A stretch of DNA of 64,000 nt from Escherichia coli (lineage in GTDB: Bacteria > Pseudomonadota > Gammaproteobacteria > Enterobacterales > Enterobacteriaceae), in the NCBI RefSeq assembly GCF_050920415.1, contig NZ_CP169309.1. The stretch is one strand, 5' to 3'. The translations under genes and the position numbers were made by a program. The number at the start of each line of letters is the position of its first letter. The stretch's first letter is position 1. Under the pieces are notes generated by a model. It searched no databases. It worked only from the letters and a program-made list of their open reading frames with translations, and was not told where the DNA came from. Of the stretch, positions 6,461-62,507 are shown piece after piece.

Positions 6461-6467
6461 TACGTTA

Positions 6468-42364: not shown

Positions 42365-42545
42365 GGTTTCTCTTTCCACTAGACAGATACACTGGTTGTC
42401 GGCCTGGTGGTGGAAAACTTTATGCTGTGGAAAAGCGTCGGCACTGCTTTTGTTGCAGCAAACTTGCGTTTTTTGTGAGGGTCACACTCTATAGCGGCAG
42501 TTTATGGTACAAAGTATCAATCTTCTTCGAACCAGTGATACTCCT

Positions 42546-43409
42546 ATGGCTTATAGCATCGATATCATCTCCTGCATTACCGAACGATTTATGGCGTTAA
42601 CAGCCACTGAAAAGCGTATCGCACAATTTATTCTTGATGACGTCTCTGCCGCAGTAGAGTTGCCAATTGCTGAGCTGGCACGGTTAACGCAAACCAGTCA
42701 GGCGTCGGTGACGCGTTTTGCCCGTGCACTGGGGTGCAAAGATGTCCGCGAGTTGAAAGTCAAACTGGCGCAGTCACTGGCTGTCGGGCAGCGGTTTATT
42801 CTCGATGTACCGGATCTTGACGGTGTTCAGGGGATCTACGAAGCGATTATTAGCGTGCTGGAAACGCATCGTCGTTCGCTGGATATGAATGCCATCAGCC
42901 AGGCTGTAAGCTGGTTAAGTCAGGCGCGGCAAATTCTTGCGTTAGGAACTGGCGGCGGTTCCACTATCTGTTCACAGGAGATTCAGTACCGTTTATTCCG
43001 TCTGGGGCTACCAGTGGTCAGTCAGAATGATGCCCTGATGATGAGAATGATGTGCTCGGCAGTGATGCCGCAGGATGTGGTGATTGTGCTGTCGCTGGGC
43101 GGTTATACACCGGAAATCATCGAAAGTGCGGCAATCGCCCGTCAGTATGGCGCGCGTGTTATTGCCATTACGCCAGCACAAACACCGCTGGCAGAACAGG
43201 TAGATCTGGTATTGCCGCTGCTGGTTCAGGAGAGTGATTACATCTTTAAACCCACGCCTTCCCGCTACGCGATGTTAGCCATGGTCGATGTACTGGCAAC
43301 GGAACTGGCAATGGCAAATAAAGCGCAGGCGAAAGATCGCCTGCGGCGGATAAAACTGGTGTTAGACAGCCACCGTGGGGGCGCTAACCGCCAGCCACTT
43401 GGCGATTAG
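42546..43409 (+). CDS. RpiR/MurR-family transcriptional regulator (HTH plus SIS domain)
   Basis: N-terminal HTH_6 (ELPIAELARLTQTSQASVTRFARALG) and SIS domain; first gene of island. Confidence 0.8.
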   Translation: MAYSIDIISCITERFMALTATEKRIAQFILDDVSAAVELPIAELARLTQTSQASVTRFARALGCKDVRELKVKLAQSLAVGQRFILDVPDLDGVQGIYEAIISVLETHRRSLDMNAISQAVSWLSQARQILALGTGGGSTICSQEIQYRLFRLGLPVVSQNDALMMRMMCSAVMPQDVVIVLSLGGYTPEIIESAAIARQYGARVIAITPAQTPLAEQVDLVLPLLVQESDYIFKPTPSRYAMLAMVDVLATELAMANKAQAKDRLRRIKLVLDSHRGGANRQPLGD

Positions 43410-43418
43410 CATTGTCGG

Positions 43419-44888
43419 TTATGCTTCTTCAGGTTTGGTGATCACGACACTCTGGTTTTCACGCTCATTGGTGATAATAGCCAAAGCTTCTTCCCGGCTG
43501 ACCTGACTTGCTGGCGTTACCAACGTCACCAGTACGCCAGCGACCAGGCTGCCCAGCACTGACGGAATACACGGGTTACCCCAGTAAGCCAGCCAGTCGG
43601 CATTCATCAGCACCACAATTGACATCACCATACCGCTCACTAACGCCGCCAGCGCGCCCTGCCAGTTAAAGCGTAGCCAGAAGCGACCGAGAATCGAGCA
43701 GATAAACAGCCCGGACATCAGCATCGAAATCATTTTGGTAATGTAGCTGATGATGTCATTAGAGGTCAGAGCAAAGACCAGCGCCAGGCCAATAACAAAG
43801 GTCAACATCCAGCGTGAGTAAGTAATGGCCTTGTCCTCCGGCGGCATTCTGCCGGTAATCATGGTGTAGACGTCGCGCATCATAATCGCCACTGCCGCAA
43901 TGGCATCAGAACTGGCAGAAGACATGGTGGCAGAAAGCCCGGCAATCAGCACCACCAGCCCAAGAATGGCAGGTAAGAAGCTGGTCGCGAACAAGAAGGC
44001 ATAGTTACTGTTTTCCAGATTCGGGTTCATGGTGAACGCCGCCATGCCGATAATGGCAGGCAGAATCGAGAAGAACAGATACAACACGCCAGTAATAACA
44101 AATGAACGCCGTACAGAGGGAACGTCTTTTCCCGAGTAAATACGCTGGCGATAAGATGGTGTGGCCAGTACGCCGACACCAATAACCAGCGCCAGCGAAA
44201 GCGCAGGCAGCACGCCCATTTTATCAATCGCAAACAGGCTCATCGCTTTTGGGTCCATCGCCTGCTCAATCGCACTCCAGCCACCAACGTGAACAACGGC
44301 AAGAATAGCCATTAATATAAAGCCAAAGAACAGAATTAGGGCCTGAATGGTATCGGTCCACACTACCGCCGAATAACCGCCGATAATAACGTAAATCGCA
44401 AAAGCTAAGGCAATAATTAATTTTGCCACCGTAAGATCAATACCTGTTGCCCAGGCAAGATACATACTTCCACCTAATATATGCGCCCCCAGCCAGCCAA
44501 TAGAGGCAATAAATATCATCATGCCGACAATGTTTTTAATTAAATGACTGCCGCCAGTATAATAAGATATTTCTTCACTCATGGTCATAAAACGTAATTT
44601 ACGTACCGGTGCAAACAGCCACGCCACCAGTAATATACCTACGGCCCCACCGACGCCATAAAGCATTCCGGCCCAGCCATTGCTGTAGCCAAAGCCCACT
44701 GCGCCCATACTGGAACCCGTGCCAACCATCGTGGCAACGGTTGACCCCAGCGTCAGAAACAGCGGCAGCGAACGCCCGCCCAGCAGAAAATCTTCTCCGC
44801 TTTTCTGATTACGAGAAACAAACCAACCAAGCCAAATCATGGCGATGGCATAAATAATAAAGCCGACTAAAAAGATATGACTGTTCAT
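43419..44888 (-). CDS. Sodium:solute symporter (SSS) family transporter
   Basis: 489 aa, about 13 TM, SSS-like N-terminal pattern (GGRSLPLFLTLGSTVATMVGTGSSMG). Confidence 0.8.
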   Translation of the reverse strand: MNSHIFLVGFIIYAIAMIWLGWFVSRNQKSGEDFLLGGRSLPLFLTLGSTVATMVGTGSSMGAVGFGYSNGWAGMLYGVGGAVGILLVAWLFAPVRKLRFMTMSEEISYYTGGSHLIKNIVGMMIFIASIGWLGAHILGGSMYLAWATGIDLTVAKLIIALAFAIYVIIGGYSAVVWTDTIQALILFFGFILMAILAVVHVGGWSAIEQAMDPKAMSLFAIDKMGVLPALSLALVIGVGVLATPSYRQRIYSGKDVPSVRRSFVITGVLYLFFSILPAIIGMAAFTMNPNLENSNYAFLFATSFLPAILGLVVLIAGLSATMSSASSDAIAAVAIMMRDVYTMITGRMPPEDKAITYSRWMLTFVIGLALVFALTSNDIISYITKMISMLMSGLFICSILGRFWLRFNWQGALAALVSGMVMSIVVLMNADWLAYWGNPCIPSVLGSLVAGVLVTLVTPASQVSREEALAIITNERENQSVVITKPEEA

Positions 44889-44990
44889 AATTCACATCCT
44901 GCCAGTAGAGAGAGAATAATGTAAGAGTTCCCGGAGTGCTGAATGTATTCAGCACTCAATTGCGGTCTGTTTTTTTAATTCTTAAATTTA

Positions 44991-45386
44991 TTAGCGGGTC
45001 GCGTTATAACAGGTCACATCGACTTCGACTTTACAATCGACAACCAGATCAGCCACACAACAAATACGTGCAGGCGGATTCTCGCCAAAAAATTCTCTGA
45101 ATACTTTATTAAATGACTGGAAATAGCGGGCGTCGGTCAGGATCACTTTCACGTGAACCACATCCGCCAGGCTATAACCGGCTTCAGTCATGATGTCGAC
45201 ACAGTTTTGGATCGCCAGTCGTGACTGTTCAACGATTCCGCCTTCTACCACTTCACCGTTTTTCATGGGTGTTTGCCCGGAGACGTACAGCCAGCCGCCC
45301 GCCTCAACCGCCCTGGCAAAAGGCAAATGCTGCCCGCCAGTGCCTGTTCCACCTTCCGTACCGTAACGTTTAATGCTCATATTCAC
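44991..45386 (-). CDS. RidA/YjgF-family protein (start uncertain)
   Basis: About 130 aa with Rid-family C-terminal pattern (ARICCVADLVVDCKVEVDV). Confidence 0.7.
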   Translation of the reverse strand: MNMSIKRYGTEGGTGTGGQHLPFARAVEAGGWLYVSGQTPMKNGEVVEGGIVEQSRLAIQNCVDIMTEAGYSLADVVHVKVILTDARYFQSFNKVFREFFGENPPARICCVADLVVDCKVEVDVTCYNATR

Positions 45387-45389
45387 TCC

Positions 45390-46841
45390 TTAATGTGAGG
45401 TCTGCCGGCGCAGGAAGCGTCCCGCACGGCCTGTAATATGTTTATCGCGACCATAGCTCATAACGCCGTTCACCATCACCGCCTCAATGCCATCTGCCGG
45501 GCGTTTGGGATCAGAAAAGCTGGCAACATCACGAATGGTTTGTGGATCGAACAACACCAGGTCCGCAAAATAGCCAACTTTCACCAGTCCACGCTGGGGC
45601 AGGCGAAAACGGCTGGCAGAAAGCCCGGTCATTTTGTGGATAGCCGTGGTCAGAGGGAATAAACCTTCATCACGGCAATAGTGACCCAGCACGCGAGGGA
45701 AGGCGCCCCATAAACGTGGATGCGGCATGGGATCATTGGGCAGGCCGTCAGAGCCAATCATACTGACTGGATAACTCAATACTCTGCGGACGTCGCGCTC
45801 GTCCATGTTGTAATAGATAGCCCCGGCAGGCATTAGCAGCTTCGCGGCCTCCAGCATACTCATCTGCCAGTCGATGGCGATTTGCGCCAGTGTTTTCCCG
45901 GCCTGCTGCGGATGTGTTTGTGACCAGGTGATCACAATATCGAATTCGTCGGTGACTTGTTTGAGATCCAGCGTTGAAGAGCTGGCTGAGTAAGGGTAGA
46001 CATCGCAGCCAATTTCCTGGTGTTGACGCATTTGGTCAAAAAAAGCCAACGTTTCTTTTGTCCGCCCCCAGTTTTTCGCCCCGGCGCATTTATGGTGGGA
46101 AACCACGACAGGCACTTTGCCATGACGCCCAATACGAAACGCCTCATCCAGGGCATCGAGAATCGGTTCAAATTCAGAACGCAGATGGGTGGTATAAACG
46201 CCCTTCTCACCGGCTAATTCTTCCGCCAGCGCCATGACTTCTTCGGTAGTCGCCTGAAATGCTGTGGCATAGGCCAGCCCGGAACTTAACCCCAGCGCCC
46301 CCTGACTCAACGCCAGACGTAAGTCGGCGCGCATGGCGGCAATTTCATCCGCCGTCGCCGGGCGAAACAGGTCGTCCATATGGTTATTACGCAGCGCCGT
46401 ATGACCAATCAGCGTGCCAACGTTCAGTGACGGCCTGGCTGCTTCCACTGCCTGGGCATAGCTTTCAACGGTAGGATAAATAAAGTGCTCCGCTTCCCCC
46501 AACAGATTCATCGGGTCAGGAACTTCGCCTTTCATTTTCGCCGACGCCGCACTGATCCCGCAGTTACCGACAATCACCGTGGTGATCCCCTGGCTGATTT
46601 TTGGCAGATATTCCGGGATGCGAATAACGTTGATATCGTCATGGGTATGAACGTCGATAAACCCTGGTGCCAGCACCCGCCCTTCCCCGTCAATGACCTG
46701 CTGCGCCGTAACGTTAAGCGCAGGGGCAATATCGACAATCCGATCACCTGTTATTGCCACGTCACCGCGAAATTCAGGGCCGCCGCTACCGTCGATAACG
46801 GTCACATTTTTGATTAACCAGTCAACCTGCATGTTCGTCAC
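45390..46841 (-). CDS. D-aminoacylase (N-acyl-D-amino-acid deacylase), amidohydrolase superfamily
   Basis: 483 aa; metal-binding HxH start (GFIDVHTHDD) and D-aminoacylase-like architecture. Confidence 0.75.
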   Translation of the reverse strand: MTNMQVDWLIKNVTVIDGSGGPEFRGDVAITGDRIVDIAPALNVTAQQVIDGEGRVLAPGFIDVHTHDDINVIRIPEYLPKISQGITTVIVGNCGISAASAKMKGEVPDPMNLLGEAEHFIYPTVESYAQAVEAARPSLNVGTLIGHTALRNNHMDDLFRPATADEIAAMRADLRLALSQGALGLSSGLAYATAFQATTEEVMALAEELAGEKGVYTTHLRSEFEPILDALDEAFRIGRHGKVPVVVSHHKCAGAKNWGRTKETLAFFDQMRQHQEIGCDVYPYSASSSTLDLKQVTDEFDIVITWSQTHPQQAGKTLAQIAIDWQMSMLEAAKLLMPAGAIYYNMDERDVRRVLSYPVSMIGSDGLPNDPMPHPRLWGAFPRVLGHYCRDEGLFPLTTAIHKMTGLSASRFRLPQRGLVKVGYFADLVLFDPQTIRDVASFSDPKRPADGIEAVMVNGVMSYGRDKHITGRAGRFLRRQTSH

Positions 46842-47032
46842 TCCATTTCTGCAATGGTGACAAGTTAACCATTTACAAGGATGAAAAACAGTGGAAAACT
46901 ACGCAAAACCCAGATGATTTTATGATACTTTTATTCATAAACTATAAGATAAATAAACTAAATATTTATATTTCATTTAGTTACAAATGATACTCACATC
47001 CGATACGGTGAAAAACTTAAAAGGTAAATGTT

Positions 47033-48253
47033 ATGAAATACCACTCAGAACCTCTGGTTCCCCATAAATCGGCCCTGATGCAAATGCCCGCAAATCTCCT
47101 TGCCGAAGATGTCTGTTTACCTGCCGCGATCATTAAAAAGCAGGCCCTGGAGAACAACATTACGTGGATGCAGCGTTATGCTGACGCGCGCGGCGTTTCG
47201 CTGGCACCGCACGGTAAAACCACCATGACGCCGTGGATTTTTCAGGCGCAGCAGGCGGCTGGTGCCTGGGCAATAGGTGTCGGTAGCGCATGGCAGGCTG
47301 GTGCGGCAATGGCGAGCGGTATTCAGCGAGTGCTGATGGTTAACCAGCTGGTCGGCAAGGCGAATATGCAGTTGATTGCCCGGTTGCAACAACATTACCC
47401 GACGGTCGATTTTATCTGCTGTATCGACAGCATTGAGAACGCCCGCGCTTTGTCTGCCTTTTTTGCCAGTCAGCAACAGACACTGAACGTGATGATTGAG
47501 CTGGGTGTTCCCGGCGGACGCTGTGGTTGCCGCTCAACGGATGCCGCACTGGCACTGGCTAAACAGGCGGCCCAATTACCAGGGCTACGTCTGCGCGGGC
47601 TTGAGTTATATGAAGGTGTTTTACACGGTGACGATCCACAACCGCAGGTAGAAGCTCTGCTGCGGGATGCCGCACAACTGGCCTGTGATATGGCAAGTCT
47701 GGTTGATGGCGAGTTTATTCTCACCGGAGCAGGCACGGTCTGGTATGACGTGGTGTGCAATATCTGGCTGGCGGCAGAAAAGCCTGATAACTGCCGCATT
47801 GTTATTCGCCCTGGCTGCTACATCACTCACGACACCGGGATCTACGACGCGGCACAACAACAGTTGCTTGCCCGCGATCCTGTGGCCTGCGATCTTGCAG
47901 GCGATCTCACATCTGCGCTGGAACTGGTCGCCATGGTGCAATCGGTGCCGGAAGCTGATCGTGCGGTGGTAAATTTTGGTAAGCGTGATTGCGCCTTCGA
48001 CGCCGGACTGCCGCAACCAGTCGCCCACTACCGCAACGGCAAATCACTGGCATTTGATCCACAGGCGATTCGCAGTACAGGTATTATGGATCAGCACTGC
48101 ATGTTGCAACTGTCAGCTAATAGCGACGTGCAAGTGGGGGATATTCTGGTGTTTGGCACATCGCATCCGTGCCTGACCTTCGACAAATGGAAAACGTTGT
48201 TATTGGCTGATGACGACTACAACGTACTGGCAGAGCTGGATACGCTGTTTTGA
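47033..48253 (+). CDS. PLP-dependent enzyme with alanine-racemase-like N-terminal domain (D-serine dehydratase-like / D-threonine aldolase-like)
   Basis: 406 aa; PLP-lysine context (APHGKTT) and fold-type III pattern. Confidence 0.65.
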   Translation: MKYHSEPLVPHKSALMQMPANLLAEDVCLPAAIIKKQALENNITWMQRYADARGVSLAPHGKTTMTPWIFQAQQAAGAWAIGVGSAWQAGAAMASGIQRVLMVNQLVGKANMQLIARLQQHYPTVDFICCIDSIENARALSAFFASQQQTLNVMIELGVPGGRCGCRSTDAALALAKQAAQLPGLRLRGLELYEGVLHGDDPQPQVEALLRDAAQLACDMASLVDGEFILTGAGTVWYDVVCNIWLAAEKPDNCRIVIRPGCYITHDTGIYDAAQQQLLARDPVACDLAGDLTSALELVAMVQSVPEADRAVVNFGKRDCAFDAGLPQPVAHYRNGKSLAFDPQAIRSTGIMDQHCMLQLSANSDVQVGDILVFGTSHPCLTFDKWKTLLLADDDYNVLAELDTLF

Positions 48254-48311
48254 TAGCGCAGATGGCGGGTTCCTTCCCGCCATTAATTGTATGTATATCC
48301 TTAAGTATCTA

Positions 48312-49322
48312 TCAGCTACTTATGGATCGAATATCATCATAGATTGACTGGCTGATCTCTACCCCCTGTTGCTCACTGCGCAATCGTGCCTGGTAGCGAC
48401 GTTCTCCCGGCAGGCGCGCGCCCTGAGCCTGCATCTGACTAAACAGCGTTTCCGCCCTTGCCAGATGCCTCCCTGCATCCTCACCAAGAAAACGCTGCGG
48501 ATCGAGTGCCAGGATCAACTCTCCACCATACGGCAAACCACCTGCACCGTTATCCCACGCAAGAGACTCAGCACTGGTCATATCGCCAATCAGTGGTCCC
48601 GCAATCAGCTCCACCATCGCTGCCAGTGCCGAACCTTTATGACCGCCGAAGGTTAACATTGCTCCGTCCAACACAGCTTGTGGATCGGTGGTGGCATTGC
48701 CATGGCTGTCGATCCCCCAACCTTCAGGAAGTGATTTCCCGGCTCGCTGATGTAACTGAATCTCCCCGCGTGCCGCCGCACTGGTCGCCATATCAAAAAT
48801 AAATGGCGGCAGCTTGTCGCGCGGCCAACCAAACGCGATTGGGTTAGTACCAAAAAGAGGTTTGCCCCCCCCTTTCGGCGCAACCCAGGCATGGCTTGGC
48901 GTGGTCGCCAGCGCCACCAGTCCGGCTTCAGTCAGCGGTTCAACATCCGCAAATAAGGCGGAGTAGTGAACACAATGATTAATTGCCAGTGCTGCAATCC
49001 CGCACTGACGCGTTTTCTCGATCAGTAACGGTAGTGCCTGCTGATAAGCCAACAGCGAATAGCCACCTTTGGCATCGGCCTTAACGATTGCCGGAGCCTG
49101 AGATTCCACTGTCGGCAGAGCATCGGCAGAGACTTTCCCTTTTCGCAGCGTGTCAACAATCCCCAGCAGTCGCCATAAACCGTGCGAGGCACAACCGTCG
49201 CGCTCCCCGGCGGTAACGTTTTTCGCGATCACCACTGCATGTTGCTCACTAAATCCGTTACTAATGAGCGCATGATAGGCTAGTGCGTAAGCCTCTGATA
49301 ACGAGAGGATTACTCTATCCAT
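48312..49322 (-). CDS. Ldh2-family (malate/L-lactate dehydrogenase 2-type) oxidoreductase; candidate pyrroline/piperideine-2-carboxylate reductase
   Basis: 336 aa with Ldh2-family pattern; function inferred from family and neighbours. Confidence 0.6.
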   Translation of the reverse strand: MDRVILSLSEAYALAYHALISNGFSEQHAVVIAKNVTAGERDGCASHGLWRLLGIVDTLRKGKVSADALPTVESQAPAIVKADAKGGYSLLAYQQALPLLIEKTRQCGIAALAINHCVHYSALFADVEPLTEAGLVALATTPSHAWVAPKGGGKPLFGTNPIAFGWPRDKLPPFIFDMATSAAARGEIQLHQRAGKSLPEGWGIDSHGNATTDPQAVLDGAMLTFGGHKGSALAAMVELIAGPLIGDMTSAESLAWDNGAGGLPYGGELILALDPQRFLGEDAGRHLARAETLFSQMQAQGARLPGERRYQARLRSEQQGVEISQSIYDDIRSISS

Positions 49323-49333
49323 TTTCTACTCCT

Positions 49334-50935
49334 TTATTCTTCTTCATCCCCGTTAAAGTTCGCCCGAGGAAGACAGGTGTATGCGCCCCAGTAATAAATT
49401 CCCAACGACATCAGCGCGACGACGATAGTATCCCACGGGTGCCCTATAATGCCGCTACCGCCAAAGCTACCCAGCCAGGAAAACAGCATAATCAGGGCAT
49501 AGAAGGCAATAAGCCACAATGAAGATTTAATCTGCTGCGCCAGGCTGACATGCTGAACAGGCACTTTCGACTTGCAACTCACGTAAACCACAAACATTAC
49601 GATTTGTAGCCCCAGCAGCCAGGAAAGCGTCCCCCAACCAGACCAAAAAACAATCAGTGCGGAAATCATAAAAGAGAGTGGGCCAAGCACCGCAAAACCA
49701 CGAACGCGGAACGGGCGCGGCATATCAGGTGCATTACGGCGCAGTCCTGCAGCTGTAACCGGCGCGATGGCGTAGCTCAGTACCAGAGCCGCAGAAACCA
49801 CGCTAATCAATTGCTCCCACGACGGGAACGGTAGCGTCCAGAAGATAGATAAACCAAACGTCAGCCACAGTGCCGGACGTGGAATACCTGACTCCTTATC
49901 GATATGAGTAAAGGTTTTAAAGAATGTCCCCGCCTTCGCCCAGCCATAGATCACACGCGGTGTCGCATTCATGTAAATATTGCCAGTGCCGCTGGGAGAC
50001 ACAATAGCATCACATACCACCATAAATGCCAGCCAGCCCATCCCGAGAGTAATGGCGATATCGCGATATGGCAGCGAATAGTTCTTACTGATCTCCGCCC
50101 AACCACCACTTAGCGATTCAGTTGGAATACTGCCCAAAAAGGCGACCTGCAACAGAACGTAGATGATGGTCGAGAGAATTACCGAGAGGATCAGCGCAAA
50201 TGGGATGGTACGTTGCGGATTTTGCGCCTCGCTGGCTACGGAGATAATCGGTGTCAGTCCAAGGTAAGCGAAGATAATCCCACCCGCGCTAATTGCCGCT
50301 TCCACTCCTGACATACCAAATGGAGCCATACCCTGTATATGCAGATTCTCCGGTTTGAAGAAGGCAAATAACGTTATTACCACCAGCAACGGCACCAGAA
50401 ACTTCAGCACGCTAATAAAATTGTTCGAGCGAGCGAAAGTTTTAACACTGTAGTAGTTCAGGGCAAAAAAGAAGCACAACAGTAAGAACTGCACCACCCA
50501 GCCTAACAGCGTCGGGTCACTACTCCCCGTCTGCGTCAGCGCAGGAAACCAGGCGGCGGCATATTGCCGTGCGGCTACAATCTCAATGGAGATCAGGCTG
50601 GAGAAGGCAATCAGGGTAATAAAACCCAGCAGATAGCCCATCAATTCGCCGTGCGAAAATACCGGGTAACGAATAATACCGCCCGCGCGGGGAAGCGCCG
50701 CCCCCAGTTCGCAGTAAATAATCCCCAGTAGCAGCACCGCAAAACCGCCAATAACCCAGGAAGCAATCCCTGCTGGGCCAGCGATCGATGCGACATGGCT
50801 GGCAGCAAACAGCCAGCCAGAACCGAAAATCGCCCCCAGACCAATAAAGGTCAAGTCGGTGAGCGTTAACTGCTTTTTAAACTTCCCCGACTCAACAACG
50901 ACGGTTTGCGTGCTTTGGGTAGAAGGAATTGTCAT
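49334..50935 (-). CDS. APC-family amino-acid permease
   Basis: From MTIPSTQSTQTVVVESG... with GAAGGG RBS; about 12 TM. Confidence 0.75.
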   Translation of the reverse strand: MTIPSTQSTQTVVVESGKFKKQLTLTDLTFIGLGAIFGSGWLFAASHVASIAGPAGIASWVIGGFAVLLLGIIYCELGAALPRAGGIIRYPVFSHGELMGYLLGFITLIAFSSLISIEIVAARQYAAAWFPALTQTGSSDPTLLGWVVQFLLLCFFFALNYYSVKTFARSNNFISVLKFLVPLLVVITLFAFFKPENLHIQGMAPFGMSGVEAAISAGGIIFAYLGLTPIISVASEAQNPQRTIPFALILSVILSTIIYVLLQVAFLGSIPTESLSGGWAEISKNYSLPYRDIAITLGMGWLAFMVVCDAIVSPSGTGNIYMNATPRVIYGWAKAGTFFKTFTHIDKESGIPRPALWLTFGLSIFWTLPFPSWEQLISVVSAALVLSYAIAPVTAAGLRRNAPDMPRPFRVRGFAVLGPLSFMISALIVFWSGWGTLSWLLGLQIVMFVVYVSCKSKVPVQHVSLAQQIKSSLWLIAFYALIMLFSWLGSFGGSGIIGHPWDTIVVALMSLGIYYWGAYTCLPRANFNGDEEE

Positions 50936-50946
50936 AGTGATGCCCT

Positions 50947-52557
50947 TCAATGAGTCAACAAGGAGGAAATGGCTTCCCGGGTCCACTGGCCGTTAACCAA
51001 GCGCAGCAGGTTTAATGGATTACTGTCCTGCAGCGCAGGCGGTAATAGTGCAGCGGGTGCATTTTGCAGGCATACCGGGCGCAGAAAACGAGTAATGGCC
51101 AGCGTGCCTACGGACGTGCCGCGCGCGTCGGTGGTTGCCGGGAACGGACCACCGTGTACCATGGCATCGCAAACCTCGACGCCGGTGGGATAGCCATTGA
51201 ACAATACGCGTCCGGCTTTATCAGCCAACAATGGCAATAAACGACCAGCCAGTTGCCGGTCATCCTCATCCGCCTGAAGTGTGGCAGTAAGTTGCCCTTG
51301 CAGAGCGTTAATTACCTGCAACAACTCCGCTTCATCAGCGGCTTCAACCACAATCGCGAGCGGCCCGAACACTTCCTCCTGCAACAGAGGATCTTTTTCA
51401 AGTATGTTTGCCGCCTGAGCCTGATAGAGACGAGTTTCTGCTCGTCCGGCTTGATGATTATCGTCCCCCGCCAAACACCGAATAGTCGGATGTTCTGCCA
51501 GTTTCTCCACGCTGTGGCGATAGTGCTCAAGCGTGGAGGCGTTTAGCATGAGTTGCGGTGTGGCGGCATTCACTTTCTCAACCAGTTGCTGTAAAAAGTC
51601 CGCGTTTTTCTCCCCTTTCAGCAACACAATCAGGCCTGGTTTAGTGCAGAACTGTCCACATCCCAACGTGAACGACGCGACTAAATCGCGGGCCAGCGTA
51701 TCGGCACGTACTGATAGCGCCTGCGGCAGAATGAAAAAGGGATTGAGAGCCGACATTTCGGCAAAAACCGGTATCGGCTGTGGACGCTGTTGGGCCAAAC
51801 GAAAGAGCGCCATGCCACCACGTAATGAGCCGGTAAAACCCACCGCCTGAATTGCGGGATGTTTCACCAGTTCAGCACCGATATCAGTACCGAAAATCAT
51901 ATTGAATACGCCTGCGGGCATGGCGCATTTAGTCACGGCACGAGCGATCGCTGATGCGATAATTTCTGCCGTTGCCATATGCCCAGGATGCGCTTTCACA
52001 ACTACCGGGCATCCTGCAGCCAGTGCCGCTGCTGTATCACCACCGGCGATAGAAAAAGCGAGTGGAAAGTTGCTGGCACCAAATACCGCCACCGGCCCGA
52101 GAGCCGTTTTATACTGGCGCAAATCCGGTCGAGGCAGAGGCTGACGCTCCGGCAACGCAGTATCAATTCTTACCTCAAACAGATCGCCCCGACGTAATAA
52201 CCCGGCAAACATGCGCATCTGCCCGCTGGTTCTTGCCCGCTCTCCCTGTAAACGCGCCAGGGGTAACGCTGTCTCCTGATGTGCCGTAGCGAACAGTTCG
52301 TCGCCTGCTGCATCAAGTTCATCGGCGATGGTTTCTAAAAAATCGGCACGTTGCCCGGCATTGGTCAGTGAATAGCACACAAAAGCCTGCTGCGCCGCAA
52401 TAGCCGCCTGCTCGGCCTCCTCCACGGAGGCCGGGTAAAAACGTTGCCCGGTAGGTTCGCCATCCTGCGCTCGCAGGCTGACCAGCGACGGTTCACCGCT
52501 GGCAACACGTTGCCCGGCGATGAACTGTTGCCCGGTGAAAGGGAAAGTTTCAGTCAT
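50947..52557 (-). CDS. NAD(P)-dependent aldehyde dehydrogenase (candidate alpha-ketoglutarate-semialdehyde dehydrogenase)
   Basis: 536 aa ALDH superfamily with catalytic Cys context (FTLGCGQFCTKPG). Confidence 0.75.
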   Translation of the reverse strand: MTETFPFTGQQFIAGQRVASGEPSLVSLRAQDGEPTGQRFYPASVEEAEQAAIAAQQAFVCYSLTNAGQRADFLETIADELDAAGDELFATAHQETALPLARLQGERARTSGQMRMFAGLLRRGDLFEVRIDTALPERQPLPRPDLRQYKTALGPVAVFGASNFPLAFSIAGGDTAAALAAGCPVVVKAHPGHMATAEIIASAIARAVTKCAMPAGVFNMIFGTDIGAELVKHPAIQAVGFTGSLRGGMALFRLAQQRPQPIPVFAEMSALNPFFILPQALSVRADTLARDLVASFTLGCGQFCTKPGLIVLLKGEKNADFLQQLVEKVNAATPQLMLNASTLEHYRHSVEKLAEHPTIRCLAGDDNHQAGRAETRLYQAQAANILEKDPLLQEEVFGPLAIVVEAADEAELLQVINALQGQLTATLQADEDDRQLAGRLLPLLADKAGRVLFNGYPTGVEVCDAMVHGGPFPATTDARGTSVGTLAITRFLRPVCLQNAPAALLPPALQDSNPLNLLRLVNGQWTREAISSLLTH

Positions 52558-52572
52558 AATCTCTCCCCCACC

Positions 52573-53493
52573 TCAAAGGCCCACGTCCGGCAGCGCAGGG
52601 CGAGTCGCCAGCGATTTCTCAACGATCGCCACAACCTGGGCACGCGTTTCGCCTTCCAGCGCCAGACGCGGCGGGCGAGTAACCTCACTGCCACGCCCCA
52701 ACAGGGCTTCACACAGCTTGATACACTGCACCAGGTCAGGGCGCGCATCGAGATGTAGCAGTGGCATAAACCAGCGATAGAGCGCCATAGCCTCGGCAAA
52801 ACGCTGTTGTTTTGCCAAACGGAACAACGTCTCACCTTCGCGTGGGAAGGCGTTTGACATCCCGGAAATCCAGCCTTCAGCGCCCACCGCAATGCTCTCA
52901 ACCACGACATCGTCCAGCCCGGCAAACAGCACAAAGCGATCGCCTACCGCATTGCGAAGATCGATAAAGCGCCGGGTATCACCAGAGGAATCTTTAAAGC
53001 AGACGATATTTTCGCAATCAGCTAGTGTTTCCAGGATATCAGGGGTGACATCGTTTTTATAAATCGGAGGGTTGTTATAGACCATGATCGGCAGGTCGGT
53101 CGCCATTGCCACACTGCGGAAGTGCGCTGCAGTTTCATGAGGCTTAGATGAGTAAACCAAAGCAGGCATCACCATAACGCCATCAACACCGACCTTCTCG
53201 GCCTCTTTTGCCATCGTCCGGGCAAAGGCAGTGGTGAACTCAGCAACCCCGGCAATCACCGGAATTTTTCCGCCAGCAGCATCTTTCGCTACTTCGATGA
53301 TTTGCAGTTTTTCCTGAGTGGTAAGTGACGTGTTTTCTCCAACGCTGCCGCACACTACCAGGCCAGAAACCCCATCTTTAACCAAGTTTTTCATCACCGC
53401 ATGTGTGGCATCCAAATCAAGTGAGTAATCACTACGGAACTGAGTGCTAACCGCCGGAAAAACGCCACTCCAGTTAATCGCTTTATTGCTCAT
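52573..53493 (-). CDS. DapA/NAL-family lyase (candidate pyrroline-4-hydroxy-2-carboxylate deaminase)
   Basis: From MSNKAINWSGVFPAVSTQF... with AGGAA RBS; class I aldolase (DHDPS-like) pattern. Confidence 0.7.
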   Translation of the reverse strand: MSNKAINWSGVFPAVSTQFRSDYSLDLDATHAVMKNLVKDGVSGLVVCGSVGENTSLTTQEKLQIIEVAKDAAGGKIPVIAGVAEFTTAFARTMAKEAEKVGVDGVMVMPALVYSSKPHETAAHFRSVAMATDLPIMVYNNPPIYKNDVTPDILETLADCENIVCFKDSSGDTRRFIDLRNAVGDRFVLFAGLDDVVVESIAVGAEGWISGMSNAFPREGETLFRLAKQQRFAEAMALYRWFMPLLHLDARPDLVQCIKLCEALLGRGSEVTRPPRLALEGETRAQVVAIVEKSLATRPALPDVGL

Positions 53494-53644
53494 CTTTGGT
53501 TTCCTTATTGTCAATCTGTTGCGTCAATGTGAATTAAAAGTGAATCTTCATTAACAGATTGACCTCTCCTTGCGCTGGCGGCTTGTCGATTTTCTTTCCC
53601 CAGGATGACGAAATTAGCACAATGCCCAGTTGTGATTTGTCGTG

Positions 53645-54472
53645 TTACCCCATCAACGTCATCCGAAAATCACGCGGAGTTGAGCCTGTCATCGCCTTAA
53701 ATTGACGGCTGAACGCACTATGGTCGGTATAACCGCACTGCAAAGCGATATCGGTAATCGGCGTAGTTCCGGCAAGTAACTCGGTGGCCTTTTCCAGTCG
53801 AACTTTGTGGATCATCTGGCGAGGCGTCAGGTGAAAAATCCGCTTACAGTAGCGTTCAATTTGCGCCACAGACATTCCGCTCATTTCAGTCAACTCTTCC
53901 ATAGAGATCGCACGGTAGTAGTGATTGCGAATGTGCTCATCGATGATCGCCAGGCGTTGCCAGGCTGGATGACGCGCATGTGCTTCCTGGAGATCATGTG
54001 AGATCCCCGCCATTCCGATCACACGCCCCTGCATATCGCGCAGTGCCAGTTTCTGCGTCAGACACCAGCCGCGTTCGCGACCGTTATAGAGATGCATCTC
54101 TAGTTGATCACGTAACGCAACCCCTTCGCGTAGCACACGCAGATCCTGTTCGGTATATCCTCGTCCCAATGCAGAAGGGAAAACATCTGCCGATGTCTTC
54201 CCCAGTAGCGATGTCACATTTTTAAACCCGCAGCGTCGCGCCAACGTCATATTGACTAACAGATAACGGGCCTGCATATCCTTAATAAAAAACACCACAT
54301 TAGGAATGGCGTTGAGAAGTGGCGCAATCAGCGCCAGTGCATTTAACAACGCCTGAATATTTTGTGGACGCTGCCGCGCCAGCCCCTCGCAAATCTGACT
54401 AAGTTCATCAACGGCCAGCGCAGTTTCTTCACAAGGGGAAAACTCAAAAGTCTGATGACATATGCTGGACAT
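53645..54472 (-). CDS. AraC-family transcriptional regulator
   Basis: C-terminal AraC HTH (TDIALQCGYTDHSAFSRQFK); divergent from the epimerase operon. Confidence 0.8.
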   Translation of the reverse strand: MSSICHQTFEFSPCEETALAVDELSQICEGLARQRPQNIQALLNALALIAPLLNAIPNVVFFIKDMQARYLLVNMTLARRCGFKNVTSLLGKTSADVFPSALGRGYTEQDLRVLREGVALRDQLEMHLYNGRERGWCLTQKLALRDMQGRVIGMAGISHDLQEAHARHPAWQRLAIIDEHIRNHYYRAISMEELTEMSGMSVAQIERYCKRIFHLTPRQMIHKVRLEKATELLAGTTPITDIALQCGYTDHSAFSRQFKAMTGSTPRDFRMTLMG

Positions 54473-54783
54473 AGTTGTTCCTCATAGCGATTGAGGATGA
54501 ATGTTTATTAACCTTTGATTAACATGACAAGTACTGAAAGTGCATTTTGCGATCCTTCCGTGTATTTCCACTTTCCGTTGCTCTCACTACTGACGAACGC
54601 TTGTTCCTGGTCTAACACATCACTAACAAAATGATTAATATTAAAAAAACATGACCACTCCTGGTGTCGCGAAATAATTCACTGTGCTGATTTCGTCATT
54701 TCCCTTGCAGAAACCCTTCAAGCGATAAAGTTGCAATTACGCCAGCATTTAGAAACATTTTGTTAACCACATGGAGCCAGAGC

Positions 54784-55731
54784 ATGCATGTTCCTCACCA
54801 AATCACTGAACTCAGGGCTATCGACTCCCATACCGGAGGCGAGCCGACCCGGTTGATTATTGATGGCTTTCCCGATCTCGGTAGCGGCAGCATGGCCGAA
54901 CGGCGCGAACGTTTTACCCGGGAATTTGACTGTTGGCGCAAAGCCATAATTCTTGAGCCACGCGGCAACGACGTGCTGGTCGGCGCGCTACTGTGTGAGC
55001 CGCTTTCCCCTCATGCCACGGCGGGTGTCATCTTTTTCAATAATGCCGGATACCTGAATATGTGTGGGCACGGCACTATCGGGCTTGTTGCCTCACTGGC
55101 CTGGTTGGGTCGTATTAAACCGGGCGTTCATCGCATTGAAACCCCTGTCGGAGATGTAAACGCCACATTGCATGATGATGGCAGTGTGTCAGTTGAAAAT
55201 GTTCCGGCCTGGCGCTGGCAAAAACAGGTAAGTGTGGAAACAGCGGTGGGTACAGTTACAGGAGATATCGCCTGGGGTGGTAACTGGTTTTTTCTTATTA
55301 ATGATCATCCATTTGATATTGTGCCGGAACAAATCCCGCAGTTAACTGAATACGCCTGGGCGGTACGGGAAGGGCTCGATAATGCGGGGATCGTCGGTGA
55401 AAACGGTGGCATTATCGATCATATCGAACTTTTTGCCGATGACGATCAGGCGGATAGCCGTAGCTTCGTCCTTTGCCCAGGTAAAGCGTGGGATCGTTCT
55501 CCCTGTGGCACAGGCACCAGCGCCAAGCTGGCCTGTCTGGCAGAAGACGGAAAACTCGCCCCCGGCGATAGCTGGCGCCAGGCCAGTATTATTGGTAGCC
55601 AGTTTACGGCTCACTATACCCGCCATGGCGAGAAGATTATCCCCACCATTCGTGGAGAAGCCTGGGTATGCGGCGACAATCGCCTGCTCCTTAATCCGGA
55701 CGATCCCTTCTGCTGGGGGATTAGCCTGTGA
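54784..55731 (+). CDS. Proline-racemase-family enzyme, Cys/Cys type (candidate 4-hydroxyproline 2-epimerase)
   Basis: Catalytic motifs MCGHGTIG and [12 protein letters not shown] (both Cys). Confidence 0.75.
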
Positions 55732-56837
55732 ACAGCACGGAGGTCATTGTCATCGGCGCAGGCATCATCGGGGCCTCCTGCGCATGGCAACTGGCAAAAC
55801 GTGGTGTGAGAGTCACGCTAATTGACAACGGCCGAGCCGGAGCGACAGCTGCAGGAATGGGGCATCTGGTCTGTATGGATGATGATCCCGCAGAACTGAC
55901 GCTCTCTGCCTGGTCGCTGGAACTGTGGCGCACGTTGACGCCTCAGTTACCGGAAAGCTGTGCCTGGTGCGGCTGTGGCACATTGTGGCTGGCGGAAACA
56001 CCAGAAGAACTGGAAATTGCCCGAGAGAAGCAGCGACGTCTGGCATCGCATGAGGTCAACAGCGAAATGCAAAGCGCTGCACAATTGGCTGAGCGGGAAG
56101 TTATGCTACGCCCGGGGTTATCCGGCGGGTTATGGGTGCCGGGCGATGGCATCGTCTACGCCCCAAACGTTGCCCGTTGGTTTATTGCCAATGCAGGCGA
56201 TAAGCTGACACATCTGGTTGATCCGGCCATTCGTCTGGAAGAACCTACAGTGACATTACAGAGCGGTCGCCAATTACGCGCCGATGCGATCGTCGTCGCC
56301 TGTGGTCTGGGGGCCAATACGTTACTGGGGGAGCCATGGCTGCGCGCGAAGAAAGGCCAACTTGCGATTACCGATCGCTATGGTCCACTAGTCAATCACC
56401 AACTGGTTGAACTTGGCTACGGCGCCAGTGCTCACGGCAGCGGCACGTCAGTGGCCTTTAATGTGCAGCCTCGTCCCACCGGACAACTGCTGATTGGCTC
56501 TTCACGTCAGTTCGATAACGAGGATCGCGAACTGGACCTTCCACTCCTGGCCGCGATGCTGTCCAGAGCGCAACACTTTCTGCCGTCTCTGGCAACGCTC
56601 AATATTATTCGTTGCTGGAGCGGTTTTCGCGCCGCCTCGCAGGATGGTAATCCCCTTCTCGGCCCGCATCCTTCCCGTGCTGGCGTCTGGCTGGCTCTTG
56701 GTCATGAAGGGCTTGGAGTGACTACTGCCCCCGCCAGCGCGTCGCTGTTAGTCGCACAGTTGCTGGGTGAACGCAGCCTCGTATCTCCTGCCCCCTGGCT
56801 ACCCGCAAGACTTATCTCCCTGGAGGCCAGCGCATGA
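55728..56837 (+). CDS. FAD-dependent oxidoreductase (DAO family; candidate D-hydroxyproline dehydrogenase subunit)
   Basis: N-terminal FAD motif [21 protein letters not shown]. Confidence 0.75.
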
Positions 56838-57097
56838 GTGGCACCATTAGAATTTTTATTGCCGGACAGCCCTGGTTTGTCCCGACGGGTATTAGCGTAG
56901 CGGCGGCACTGGCCTTAACTGATAACCCCATTACGCGCCTTTCGGTGAGCGGGCAACCACGTACGCCCTTCTGCGGCATGGGCGTTTGCCAGGAGTGTCG
57001 GGTGAGCGTTAATGGTCGTCGGGTACCCGGTTGTCAGACCCTTTGCCAGCCAGACATGCAGATTGAAAGGAGCGGATATGCAGACCTTACAGTGTGA
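56834..57097 (+). CDS. Small [2Fe-2S]-binding protein (dehydrogenase subunit)
   Basis: 87 aa with Cys motifs CGMGVCQECRV...C; overlaps both neighbours. Confidence 0.65.
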   Translation: MSGTIRIFIAGQPWFVPTGISVAAALALTDNPITRLSVSGQPRTPFCGMGVCQECRVSVNGRRVPGCQTLCQPDMQIERSGYADLTV

Positions 57098-58343
57098 CAT
57101 TTTAATTCTCGGTGCAGGCCCGGCGGGGCTATCAGCGGCTCTGGCCGCAGCAAAGTGCGATAAGCAGGTCATCATCCTTGATGATAATCCGCTTCCTGGC
57201 GGTCAAATCTGGCGCGATGGTCCACAAAGTCAGCTTCCTCCACTGGCCCGCCATTACCGTGATGCCGTTGCCAACGAATCGCGGATTCGTGTGCTCAACG
57301 GAGCGAGGTTAATCGCCCGCCGCAGCGAAAATTGTGTACTGTTCGAAACTGCAGAAGACTACGGCACAGTAAGCTGGAATAAGCTGATTCTCTGCTGCGG
57401 CGCACGTGAACTTGCATTACCGTTTCCAGGCTGGACGCTGCCCGGTGTCAGTGGCGCGGGTGGGCTACAGGCACAAATGAAACAGGGGCTGCACATGGCA
57501 AATCAAAAAGTGGTTATTGCCGGAAGTGGGCCACTATTACTGGCCGTTGCTGACACCGTTCGCCGTGCCGGAGGCGAAGTGGTGGCGATTGTGGAACAAG
57601 CCCCACGCGCAGCGCTATTGCGCTTTGGCTTCGGACTATGGCGTTGGCCGGGTAAGCTGCGCCAACTGGCGACACTATTTCCTCGTCGTTATCTCAGTGC
57701 AAGCCAGGTTATCGCTGCACACGGCGACGCCACATTGCGTGCTGTCACCCTCCGACACAATGGTAGGGAAATCACACTGCCATGCGACAAATTAGCTATT
57801 GGCTATGGTCTAGTGCCTAATCTTGAACCTGGGTTGTTCTTCAGTTGTGCCATCAGCAATGATGCCGTGCAGGTGGATGAACTGCAGCGAACCTCGGTTA
57901 AAAACATCTATGCAGCCGGTGAATGTACTGGATTTGGTGGCAGTGAACTGGCGCTGATAGAAGGTGAAATAGCCGGACTTTGTGCGGCCGATCGCGCCCA
58001 TGAAACAAAGTTTCTGCAACAAAAACGCACCAGGTGGCAGCGCTTCGCCCTCGCGCTTCATAAAACCTTTGCCCTGCCCGAAAGTCTCAAGCGCGTTGCG
58101 ACACCAGAAACGCTGCTTTGCCGCTGCGAAGACATTCGCTGTGGCGATGTAGAGCAAGCACAAAGCTGGCTGCAGGCCAAATTAACGACCCGCTGCGGCA
58201 TGGGAGCCTGTCAGGGGAGAACCTGCGCCGCTACCGCACGATGGTTGTACGGCTGGCCATTACTGGAACCGCGAGCCCCCCTTTCCCCCTCTCGCAGCGA
58301 AACGTTAATTGCCCTGGCGCAACAACCACCTTCGCCACATTAA
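57078..58343 (+). CDS. FAD/NAD(P)-binding oxidoreductase (HcnB/opine-oxidase-A-like subunit)
   Basis: From MQTLQCDILILGAGPAGLSAALAAA...; dinucleotide-binding motifs and C-terminal Cys cluster. Confidence 0.7.
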   Translation: MQTLQCDILILGAGPAGLSAALAAAKCDKQVIILDDNPLPGGQIWRDGPQSQLPPLARHYRDAVANESRIRVLNGARLIARRSENCVLFETAEDYGTVSWNKLILCCGARELALPFPGWTLPGVSGAGGLQAQMKQGLHMANQKVVIAGSGPLLLAVADTVRRAGGEVVAIVEQAPRAALLRFGFGLWRWPGKLRQLATLFPRRYLSASQVIAAHGDATLRAVTLRHNGREITLPCDKLAIGYGLVPNLEPGLFFSCAISNDAVQVDELQRTSVKNIYAAGECTGFGGSELALIEGEIAGLCAADRAHETKFLQQKRTRWQRFALALHKTFALPESLKRVATPETLLCRCEDIRCGDVEQAQSWLQAKLTTRCGMGACQGRTCAATARWLYGWPLLEPRAPLSPSRSETLIALAQQPPSPH

Positions 58344-58719
58344 ATCCCTGATAATAATTTGGCGTTAAGGGCTTATCTGGTCTGGTAAATCTTACAAATT
58401 CAATATATTGCAGAATCTATCCAGGCCAGATAAGCGTAGCGCAGCTGGCAATTATTGAGCCGTAAACGAGGAATCTACCCAGAAAAAATTTCGTGATCTC
58501 AATCACATATTAGCTCGATGAATAATTCTTGCCCAACCGCTCACCGCCATTCCTGACCGCTTACGTCCCAAATATAACCACTCAGTTATTTACCTTACTT
58601 TACGCGCGCGTAACTCTGGCAACATCACTGCAGGATAGCGGTCAATTTACCTCCTCAAACGCAACGCAAACCTAGAACGGCTTCGGCCAACTATTAATCA
58701 ATACATGCCAGGTTTTACT

Positions 58720-62204: not shown

Positions 62205-62507
62205 TTATTTTTTATTCTGATCGCGCAGCATCGCTTCACGTAAAATTGCGTTCAGGCGAGTTTGATAGCCTTTACCTGGTCGCTTCAACCATTCCATCAC
62301 ATCAGCATCAATACGCACCGAAGCCTGAGTTTTCAATGGCCGATAAAACTTACCGCGTTCTGCGTTAGACCATTGCTCATCGCTGGAAGGTGGGATATCA
62401 CTGTAATCAATATCTTCGTCGGATTTATTCGCCAGCGCCTTCAGTTCGGCCTCATGCTGCACATCGAGTGAAGAGGAGGTCCCTCGTTTATGTTTAACCA
62501 TGCTCAT
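62205..62507 (-). CDS. BrnA-like antitoxin (type II TA)
   Basis: 100 aa; C-terminal ...VMEWLKRPGKGYQTRLNAILREAML pattern of BrnA. Confidence 0.6.
   Translation of the reverse strand: MSMVKHKRGTSSSLDVQHEAELKALANKSDEDIDYSDIPPSSDEQWSNAERGKFYRPLKTQASVRIDADVMEWLKRPGKGYQTRLNAILREAMLRDQNKK

Follow-up and report, generated by a model that had tools for sequence, protein, structure and literature searches.

Two catabolic gene modules resembling ong and lhp clusters in one slot between tsr and btsT of Escherichia coli

The locus described here is reminiscent of two nutrient-use systems characterized in other bacteria. The ong cluster of Pseudoalteromonas prydzensis ACAM 620 (Jiang et al. 2022, PMC9537276) is part of an oxidative chitin pathway and comprises an RpiR repressor, a sodium:solute symporter (SSS) importer, a RidA protein, the N-acetyl-D-glucosaminate (GlcNAc1A) deacetylase PpOngB, and a fold-type III pyridoxal phosphate (PLP) deaminase that gives 2-keto-3-deoxygluconate (KDG). 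Klebsiella and Serratia ong clusters with an extra aldolase gene are listed in the same paper. The lhp clusters for trans-4-hydroxy-L-proline (T4LHyp) of Pseudomonas aeruginosa, Azospirillum brasilense and Burkholderia lata encode a pathway whose steps have been assigned, including an α-β-γ D-hydroxyproline dehydrogenase, LhpB/F/E (Watanabe et al., PMC3958920). In a 64,000-nucleotide stretch of E. coli DNA, termed the window, 14 intact genes resembling these two systems lie between the core genes tsr and btsT (yjiY). Five of these constitute module A, which is ong-like, and nine constitute module B, which is lhp-like. The locus probably represents two self-regulated catabolic modules sharing one slot, the remnant of an ong-lhp-hpa array that was moved by homologous recombination.

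Similar to the P. prydzensis cluster, module A brings the same five protein families together and conserves the OngB contact residues. It differs in gene order, shares 54% identity with PpOngB, and lacks OngA, the TonB-dependent receptor and the kinase, such that it would be a free-monomer scavenger relying on the core genes kdgK and eda. Module B likewise contains LhpA, the three LhpB/E/F-type subunits, an LhpD-type reductase, LhpC- and LhpG-like proteins placed by family and position, a transporter and an AraC-type regulator; the lhpA-B-F-E order is that of Pseudomonas, with proteins that are 48–68% identical. The main differences from the described lhp clusters are that the transporter is a single APC permease, that ABC-transporter genes are absent, and that LhpH/LhpI (3-hydroxyproline) are absent. 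In E. coli strains of the B, C and W types, the hpa (4-hydroxyphenylacetate) cluster is found at exactly this slot, has the same right junction at the CRP-like site of btsT, and also has no mobility genes. Its substrate and enzymes are unrelated, and it is common: 37% of genomes carry hpa, 3.6% carry module A and 0.6% carry module B. The K. pneumoniae array that encodes KleDacyl (PDB 9G5M, PMC12149444) lies in the same slot, flanked by lgoT and by btsT-yjiX-yjiA, and has the same gene order within modules A and B. Unlike the window, it has no tsr, its module A includes an additional kinase and aldolase, and hpa comes right after lhpE.

Both gene sets are ordinary, already-described nutrient-use systems: the two pathways are known, the genes are annotated in RefSeq, and the Klebsiella ong cluster is in the literature. 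In the literature searched, no paper was found on either module in E. coli, on hydroxyproline use by E. coli, or on this tsr/yjiY island, and both substrates are unreported for the species. The present analysis contributes a functional interpretation of module A, shows that the cargo consists of two nested modules and how frequent each is, and places the ong-lhp-hpa array of Klebsiella in the same slot; it also describes junctions that run from promoter to promoter, a recombination tract, and a conserved operator candidate.

Cargo states of the slot

In the open reading frame (ORF) list of the window, tsr and btsT are kept apart by long ORFs on both strands. An earlier, sequence-only reading described a cargo of about 16 kb at a position that is empty in K-12. 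Pairwise BLAST bears out both points: the variable cargo spans 42425–58492 (16,068 bp), and the tsr-btsT spacer of K-12 (XL1-Blue) is only 377 bp, with none of these genes at the locus. The alignment to K-12 and hpa-carrying strains that the reading had proposed fixes the junctions at 42424/42425 and 58492/58493. On the left, shared sequence ends at 42424; on the right, homology restarts at 58493 in hpa and A-only strains and at about 58537 in K-12 (XL1-Blue). The same reading counted 13 genes, having overlooked the gene for an 87-aa 2Fe-2S subunit; the two regulators (RpiR and AraC types), the pair of transporters and both enzyme sets that it listed are all annotated in the cargo. The number of 14 comes from the annotation of NZ_CP169399.1 (strain MFDS1022581, animal-source food, Korea), the single record with 100% identity when 40000–61000 was used as a megablast query against 5426 complete E. 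coli genomes. Only 34 of these genomes cover at least 80% of that query. In other strains, the slot holds an 11-gene hpa cluster; O157 has a single 543-bp hypothetical gene there, and the slot of a B2 strain is empty.

The cargo is two separable modules with differing frequencies, not one unit, and the description of a single inserted island thus holds for the presence of the cargo and fails for its unity. Module A (42425–48234, the first five genes) is found in 194 genomes (3.6%), and module B (48235–58492, 10,258 bp, nine genes) in 34 (0.6%). All copies of module B are chromosomal, at least 99.6% identical, and always beside module A. Genome sizes of 4.5–4.9 Mb and the typing of O6:H16 ETEC suggest, tentatively, that most of these 34 carriers belong to phylogroup A. 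The A-only state is visualized in strain DETEC-S792, which has the five genes, matches the window to 48234 and again from 58493, and contains a 59-bp terminator-like spacer in place of the 10,258 bp of module B. A 600-bp probe of this junction is covered in 160 genomes, equal to 194 minus 34. With a query coverage of 80% or more as the threshold, hpa is detected in 2020 genomes (37%), in agreement with the earlier statement that this junction carries hpa in other lineages. From these counts, the cargo states are mutually exclusive in E. coli: none or other in ~59% of genomes, hpa in 37%, ong in 2.9% and ong+lhp in 0.6%, with no genome (0/5426) combining ong with hpa. Gene content, synteny and frequencies are direct observations. 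In one carrier of module A, EC21Z-137 (hit H66), the module is interrupted by an IS3 element.

The junction between the modules (48234/48235) lies ~20 bp inside the 3′ end of ongC. In A-only and A+B strains alike, the last seven codons translate to AELDTLF (positions 10234–10254 of the DETEC-S792 locus L002 and 48233–48253 of the window), but 7 of the 21 sense-codon bases differ, as does the stop codon (TAA versus TGA). These synonymous differences place the A/B breakpoint inside ongC and indicate that both 3′ ends are old alleles.

The outer junctions are located at promoters. The left junction is 2 bp upstream of the tsr promoter, which was read in the window sequence and is presumably of the sigma-28 type. 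The right junction is common to all cargo states and sits at a CRP-like palindrome in the btsT promoter; TGTGA-N6-TCACA is found at the equivalent position in K-12, O157, hpa, A-only and Klebsiella sequences. Each cargo state therefore leaves both neighbouring promoters intact to the last base. The direct repeats ACCGCT(C/T)A downstream of the right junction, presumably the BtsR-binding motif of the btsT promoter, are also intact. The lhpE-btsT spacer, with its repetitive extragenic palindrome (REP)-like sequences, is specific to the A+B state. A scan for consensus promoters and terminators gave counts no better than those of shuffled sequence, and only the stem-loop at 48261–48284 was retained. 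A repeat of ~125 bp (TTACTCTATGAATTTTGGTTTGCAGGAAGGCAGCAAGTGAGTGAATCCCCGGGAGC...) is observed directly upstream of the btsT start codon in an hpa strain (L004, ~14955–15080) and in clade II Escherichia (L093, ~11625–11750) and is missing from the window (58690–58720), K-12 and A-only strains; it may be an enterobacterial repetitive intergenic consensus/intergenic repeat unit (ERIC/IRU) element.

Relatives of the array and its movement

In K. pneumoniae, chained contigs give the order lgoT, two acetyltransferases, ongR, aldolase, kinase, ongIT, ongD, ongB, ongC, nine lhp genes, hpaR-hpaC, two small genes, btsT, yjiX and yjiA, and all three E. coli cargo types are therefore present in one array in the orthologous slot. 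Amino acid identities to the window are 89–94% for the flanks, 84–95% for module A and 65–93% for module B; at 69–81% nucleotide identity, the Klebsiella version is the nearest outside Escherichia. A second K. pneumoniae variant (L092, 562–2500) has kept lhpD and lost the other lhp genes, with two short ORFs before hpaR, such that the hydroxyproline module is variable in Klebsiella too. Citrobacter rodentium CP082833 (L089) has an lhp cluster elsewhere, between aroF-tyrA and pheA, with 63–93% amino acid identity, no lhpD, and a permease that matches only in part. Beyond the E. coli cluster at 99%, the closest LhpE homologues (67–72%) are from Klebsiella, Raoultella, Citrobacter and [Enterobacter] lignolyticus.

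Within Escherichia, the cluster members are E. fergusonii (module A) and "Escherichia sp." E4385, E4930, E13S3, E2593, E2748 and E14S1 (module B). E4385, E4930, E2593 and E2748 appear in reports on clade II (PMC6639607, PMC7716201), and E13S3 and E14S1 do not. In E4385, E4930 and E13S3, ongC and the nine lhp genes are followed by btsT-yjiX-yjiA, with nucleotide identities to the window of 96–99% for module B and 98% for btsT. In E. fergusonii CP079891, the order is tsr-ong-hpa. Each of its ong genes shares 96–100% nucleotide identity with the window, against only 81% for tsr, which implies a recent exchange of module A between E. fergusonii and E. coli. That the cargo is old, as suggested earlier, is supported by K. 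pneumoniae, E. fergusonii and clade II, in all of which the same modules precede btsT in the orthologous slot.

To follow recombination, the window was compared with three A+B genomes, LR-58-1, the enterotoxigenic E. coli (ETEC) O6:H16 strain M9682-C1, and TUM9803. Module B differs by 0–0.5%, module A by 1–1.6%, lgoT by 1.4%, btsT by 1.3% and yjiX-yjiA by 1.8%. Against LR-58-1, a single-nucleotide polymorphism (SNP) is observed every 50–70 bp up to 48194, only 5 SNPs are observed in 48195–58823, and the density rises again from 58824. The SNP-poor tract of 10.6 kb corresponds to module B plus the btsT promoter. A tract of this kind in diverged flanks points to import by homologous recombination and puts the crossovers within ongC, at its 3′ end, and within btsT, at its 5′ end; this pattern, itself observed, fits the delivery by recombination that the sequence-only reading had proposed. 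A purely vertical history, in which an ancestor with ong-lhp-hpa underwent repeated independent deletions without lateral movement, would explain why Klebsiella, E. fergusonii and clade II share the position of the array and why composition is host-like. It appears very unlikely, however. Module B is 99.5–100% identical between strains in which the adjacent module A and the core flanks differ by 1–1.8%, with sharp transitions at 48194 and 58824; E. fergusonii combines a module A that is 96–100% identical to that of E. coli with a tsr of 81%; and many independent, precise losses would be needed.

Sharp junctions and absence from 96% of E. coli genomes are also what would be seen for a classical genomic island that came from outside Escherichia by site-specific integration and whose mobility genes have decayed. 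As the earlier reading had observed, no integrase or transposase is annotated between tsr and btsT (NZ_CP169399.1 record). In addition, there is no tRNA gene in 38000–64000 of the window, no direct repeats were found that pair the two cargo ends, and no plasmid copy was found among 72,556 plasmids. The GC comparison with the core genome that had been suggested gives 51.7% for module A, 53.8% for module B and 52–56% for neighbouring core genes, and composition is host-like. The Klebsiella version is in the same chromosomal slot at only 69–81% nucleotide identity, and clade II Escherichia carries the modules in the same place at ~97% identity. The integrase-island explanation is thus already largely refuted, and we consider it highly improbable.

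In the preferred reading, that of an array remnant moved by homologous recombination, an ancestral ong-lhp-hpa array would have stood upstream of btsT in Enterobacteriaceae, and the E. coli cargo would be what is left of it. Alternative subsets (none, hpa, ong, ong+lhp) would segregate as exclusive haplotypes that spread via recombination in conserved neighbouring sequence. The empty K-12 site is just as plausibly the result of a loss from this array as of insertion elsewhere, and the word "inserted" in the earlier description covers only one of these two cases. The locus would be a clean, integrase-free case of accessory metabolic cassettes acting as alternative alleles of one slot.

Predicted functions of the two modules

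Conserved residues are observed in the alignments; substrates, activities and regulation are predictions from sequence. Module B is predicted to encode a complete pathway of known type from trans-4-hydroxy-L-proline to α-ketoglutarate. LhpA scores above the equivalog cut-off of NCBIfam NF010577 (487.7 versus 442), contains the Cys/Cys pair (Cys94 in MCGHG and Cys241 in SPCGT), and matches P. aeruginosa PA1268 with 465 bits and 4J9W with 472 bits. Three overlapping genes directly after lhpA encode a DAO-type protein, an 87-aa Fer2_4 protein and a Pyr_redox_2 protein, from which a dehydrogenase assembly is predicted; Pseudomonas, Serratia and Klebsiella loci share this lhpB/F/E order, with 46–77% identity. 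The LhpC-like protein falls below the DapA cut-off (175.8 versus 206.15) and is 82–93% identical to cluster-linked orthologues in Serratia, Klebsiella and P. protegens. The LhpG-like protein (536 aa, Aldedh family) has 3V4C as its best PDB match (467 bits) and a conserved position in the cluster, and the LhpD-like protein matches the Δ1-piperideine-2-carboxylate reductase of P. syringae (DpkA, 1WTJ) with 251 bits, far above other Ldh_2 members. In a tblastn comparison covering 80 loci, four Serratia species have the nine genes in identical order (55–86% amino acid identity), Photorhabdus has 8 of the 9, and most of the Pseudomonas loci fetched have the lhpA-B-F-E block. The Klebsiella array also has this nine-gene order. 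A scan for LhpA with one genome per species gave nothing above 71% identity among the matches listed and is unreliable, having overlooked Klebsiella (83%) and C. rodentium (84.5%).

By this prediction, the APC permease would import trans-4-hydroxy-L-proline, which LhpA would convert to cis-4-hydroxy-D-proline. The three-subunit flavoenzyme LhpBEF would oxidize this to pyrroline-4-hydroxy-2-carboxylate, LhpC would deaminate the latter to α-ketoglutarate semialdehyde, and LhpG would complete the conversion to α-ketoglutarate, with LhpD serving as a side-route imine reductase. A 20-bp motif is located ahead of both operons of the module. Each of 13 loci inspected, taken from Klebsiella, Citrobacter, clade II, Serratia, Photorhabdus, Burkholderia, Pseudomonas and Stutzerimonas, has a match with at most 4 mismatches ~77–126 bp ahead of the epimerase gene. 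The AraC/PAS regulator probably acts at this motif, which is a candidate operator.

Module A is predicted to be a reduced ong cluster that scavenges free N-acetyl-D-glucosaminate, on the basis of its five families and of the OngB residues. At the family level, its five proteins correspond to OngR, OngIT, OngD, OngB and OngC (PMC9537276), with the RidA, SSS and RpiR genes all present and contiguous. NCBIfam gives family-level matches only (RpiR/HexR-like, SSS, Rid, amidohydrolase), including a weak match of the "amino acid deaminase" (OngC-like) to BhcC. The ongC-like gene is divergently adjacent to ongB, and its product matches 3gwq best in the PDB (361 bits). If translation of the ongR-like gene began at an alternative ATG (42504), its product would have 301 aa, the length in Klebsiella.

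The deacylase is the most informative member. It is 84.5% identical to its K. pneumoniae orthologue (locus L091), and its PDB scores are 938 bits to 9G5M, 561 bits to PpOngB (9KB1), 460 bits to Alcaligenes D-aminoacylase and 391 bits to N-acyl-D-glutamate deacylase. It aligns to PpOngB without gaps at 54% identity, and 14 of the 15 PpOngB residues that contact GlcNAc1A (PMC12017989) are kept: Leu116, Ala193, Tyr194, Glu226, Lys254, Ala256, Tyr285, Ser290–292, Gln298, Asp368, Leu370 and Arg379 in PpOngB numbering. The sole substitution is Gly348 to the polar Asn, at a position that, with Ala193 and Ala256, belongs to the small or polar cavity of OngB-type deacetylases. In the numbering of the E. 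coli protein, conserved residues include Ser286, Gln292, Ala187 and Ala250. Ser292 and Gln298 of PpOngB are Thr and Leu/Arg in true D-aminoacylases, and mutating them cripples activity (PMC12017989).

In the pathway proposed for module A, GlcNAc1A, the C1-oxidized chitin monomer, would enter through the sodium symporter and be split by the OngB-like deacetylase into D-glucosaminate and acetate. Aided by RidA, the OngC-like PLP enzyme would deaminate D-glucosaminate to KDG, which the core enzymes KdgK and Eda would take to pyruvate and glyceraldehyde-3-phosphate. The RpiR repressor would control the module. The Salmonella dga D-glucosaminate system also feeds an aminated gluconate into the Entner-Doudoroff branch, with uptake by a phosphotransferase system (PTS), action on the 6-phosphate, unrelated enzymes (DgaE/DgaF) and no deacetylase.

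Several observations weigh against the interpretation of the locus as a whole. When the junction spacers of ong-hpa, hpa-only, A-only and A+B sequences were aligned in an attempt to derive one cargo state from another, no clear homology was found, and no state is therefore derivable from another at the sequence level; the only feature common to the spacers is a terminator-like hairpin at the A-only and hpa right junctions. In module B, the LhpC and LhpG assignments are made by family and conserved position only, and the LhpG-like protein scores 92.5 against NCBIfam α-ketoglutarate semialdehyde models with a cut-off of 770. In module A, the OngC-, OngD-, OngIT- and OngR-like assignments derive from protein family and gene context. 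None of the 14 genes belongs to the OngA hexosaminidase, TonB-dependent receptor or KDG kinase families, such that only the free monomer would be usable, and module A is classed as a reduced ong variant rather than a full cluster. KleDacyl, the orthologous enzyme of K. pneumoniae, is active in vitro on N-acetyl-D-amino acids, in assays that covered only N-acetyl-amino acids (PMC12149444). Finally, the kinase in the Klebsiella ong operon (L091, 15894–17352) is of the DgoK family (PF05035) and not a PfkB-type KDG kinase.

The KleDacyl result bears on an alternative in which module A serves N-acyl-D-amino-acid utilization: the symporter would import N-acetyl-D-amino acids, a D-aminoacylase would free the D-amino acid, and the deaminase and RidA would give keto acids from D-Ser/D-Thr-like products. 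The PGAP name of the protein, N-acyl-D-amino-acid deacylase, its 460 bits to the Alcaligenes enzyme, the activity of the Klebsiella orthologue on N-acetyl-D-Met and related substrates, and the deamination of D-Ser and D-Thr by PpOngC are all in line with this proposal. Nevertheless, the two specificity-switching residues are Ser and Gln as in OngB, where D-aminoacylases have Thr and then Leu or Arg, and the match to PpOngB is stronger than that to any D-aminoacylase (561 versus 460 bits). The RpiR/SIS regulator, together with the keto-deoxy-sugar-acid kinase and aldolase inside the Klebsiella operon, also points to a sugar acid, and the D-amino-acid proposal appears unlikely.

The DgoK-family kinase, which adjoins a KDPG/KHG-type aldolase in the Klebsiella operon, hints at a galacto-configured product rather than KDG. 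A second alternative is thus a substrate such as N-acetyl-D-galactosaminate, which would be converted to 2-keto-3-deoxygalactonate and processed by the core enzymes DgoK and DgoA; the placement of the kinase in PF05035 and not in the PfkB family of KdgK is in its favour. All PpOngB residues that contact hydroxyl groups are kept, however, including Glu226, which contacts the C4 hydroxyl; a Pfam family alone does not settle the substrate of a kinase; and the literature searched contained no such pathway. We regard this alternative as quite improbable.

If these predictions are true, ~0.6% of sequenced E. coli, with O6:H16 ETEC, poultry and food isolates among them, can use hydroxyproline from the collagen of host tissue, meat or gelatin, and ~3.6% could use N-acetyl-D-glucosaminate from chitin oxidized by other microbes. 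Such niche-defining traits would be overlooked by metabolic models based on K-12. A more extended proposal, which we put forward tentatively and would not yet favour over its negation, is that the tsr/lgoT-btsT interval is an ancient three-module array kept in E. coli as exclusive "allelic" states, with the hydroxyproline module having arrived recently, in a sweep-like manner, in backgrounds that carry ong, ETEC O6:H16 among them. The modules would let a few lineages respire collagen-derived hydroxyproline and scavenge chitin sugar oxidized by lytic polysaccharide monooxygenases (LPMO), under an operator conserved from Pseudomonas to Escherichia.

Feature coordinates and neighbouring genes

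Table 1. Positions of genes and sequence elements in the window.
Feature	Coordinates	Strand	Basis or remark
tsr	40700..42364	-	left flanking core gene; divergent allele, 554 aa, 95.7% nucleotide identity to K-12
Presumed sigma-28-type tsr promoter	42396..42422	-	TAAAGTTT (42422-42415), 11 nt, GCCGACAA (42403-42396)
ongR-like MurR/RpiR regulator	42546..43409	+	HTH_6 + SIS
ongIT-like SSS symporter	43419..44888	-	family match
ongD-like RidA imine/enamine deaminase	44991..45380	-	family match
ongB-like deacetylase, D-aminoacylase fold	45390..46832	-	54% identity to PpOngB
ongC-like fold-type III PLP deaminase	47033..48253	+	Ala_racemase_N + D-ser_dehydrat
G+C-rich stem-loop	48261..48284		between convergent ongC and lhpD
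lhpD-like Ldh_2-family reductase (DpkA-type Pyr2C/Pip2C reductase)	48312..49322	-	PMC3958920
APC-family amino-acid permease, presumed hydroxyproline importer	49334..50935	-	family
lhpG-like NADP+ aldehyde dehydrogenase, presumed α-ketoglutarate semialdehyde dehydrogenase	50947..52557	-	family + position
lhpC-like DHDPS-family protein, presumed pyrroline-4-hydroxy-2-carboxylate deaminase	52573..53493	-	family + position
20-bp motif CATTGTGCTAATTTCGTCAT	53605..53624	-	112-131 bp upstream of lhpC operon; candidate site of AraC-type regulator
AraC-family regulator with PAS_4 domain, LhpR-like	53645..54472	-	between the two operons
20-bp motif, second copy CACTGTGCTGATTTCGTCAT	54680..54699	+	85-104 bp upstream of lhpA
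lhpA 4-hydroxyproline 2-epimerase	54784..55731	+	NCBIfam equivalog
lhpB-like FAD (DAO family) β subunit, D-hydroxyproline dehydrogenase	55728..56837	+	family
lhpF-like 2Fe-2S (Fer2_4) γ subunit, 87 aa	56834..57097	+	family
lhpE-like FAD/NAD(P) oxidoreductase (Pyr_redox_2) α subunit	57078..58343	+	family
REP-like palindromes after lhpE	58370..58449		GCTTATCTGG 58371-58380 pairs with CCAGATAAGC 58426-58435; GCCAG...CTGGC 58425-58449
CRP-like palindrome, btsT promoter	58492..58507	+	CGTGATCTCAATCACA
Direct repeats ACCGCTCA and ACCGCTTA, ACCGCT(C/T)A	58536..58563	+	intact, downstream of right junction
btsT	58720..60870	+	right flanking core gene

The tsr allele of the window is unusually divergent for a core gene, with 95.7–96.7% nucleotide identity to K-12, O157, hpa, B2 and A-only sequences and 554 rather than 551 aa in K-12. 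The 5′ untranslated region of tsr also differs between ong-bearing and other strains. On the far left, a lambdoid prophage (1–24600) encodes packaging and lysis functions, antiterminator Q, Rha and LexA-like repressors. It contains a tyrosine integrase gene (23013–24269) and three tRNA genes at 6290–6542 (Arg, one "tRNA-OTHER" and Ile), is integrated beside yjjG, and has several frameshifted genes. After yjiA, a BrnA antitoxin gene with a truncated BrnT is followed by a restriction endonuclease gene (together 62205–63986); Fic+hsdR or mrr+hsdR are observed at this place in other A+B strains. This hypervariable restriction-gene region may account for the high allelic diversity of the neighbourhood. 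Three flanking genes are disrupted in individual strains: btsT is frameshifted in ETEC O6:H16 M9682-C1 (L099, 19485–21634), lgoT has an internal stop in LR-58-1 (L098, 56–1417), and IS1 truncates lgoD beside lgoT in DETEC-S792 (L002, 598–1295).

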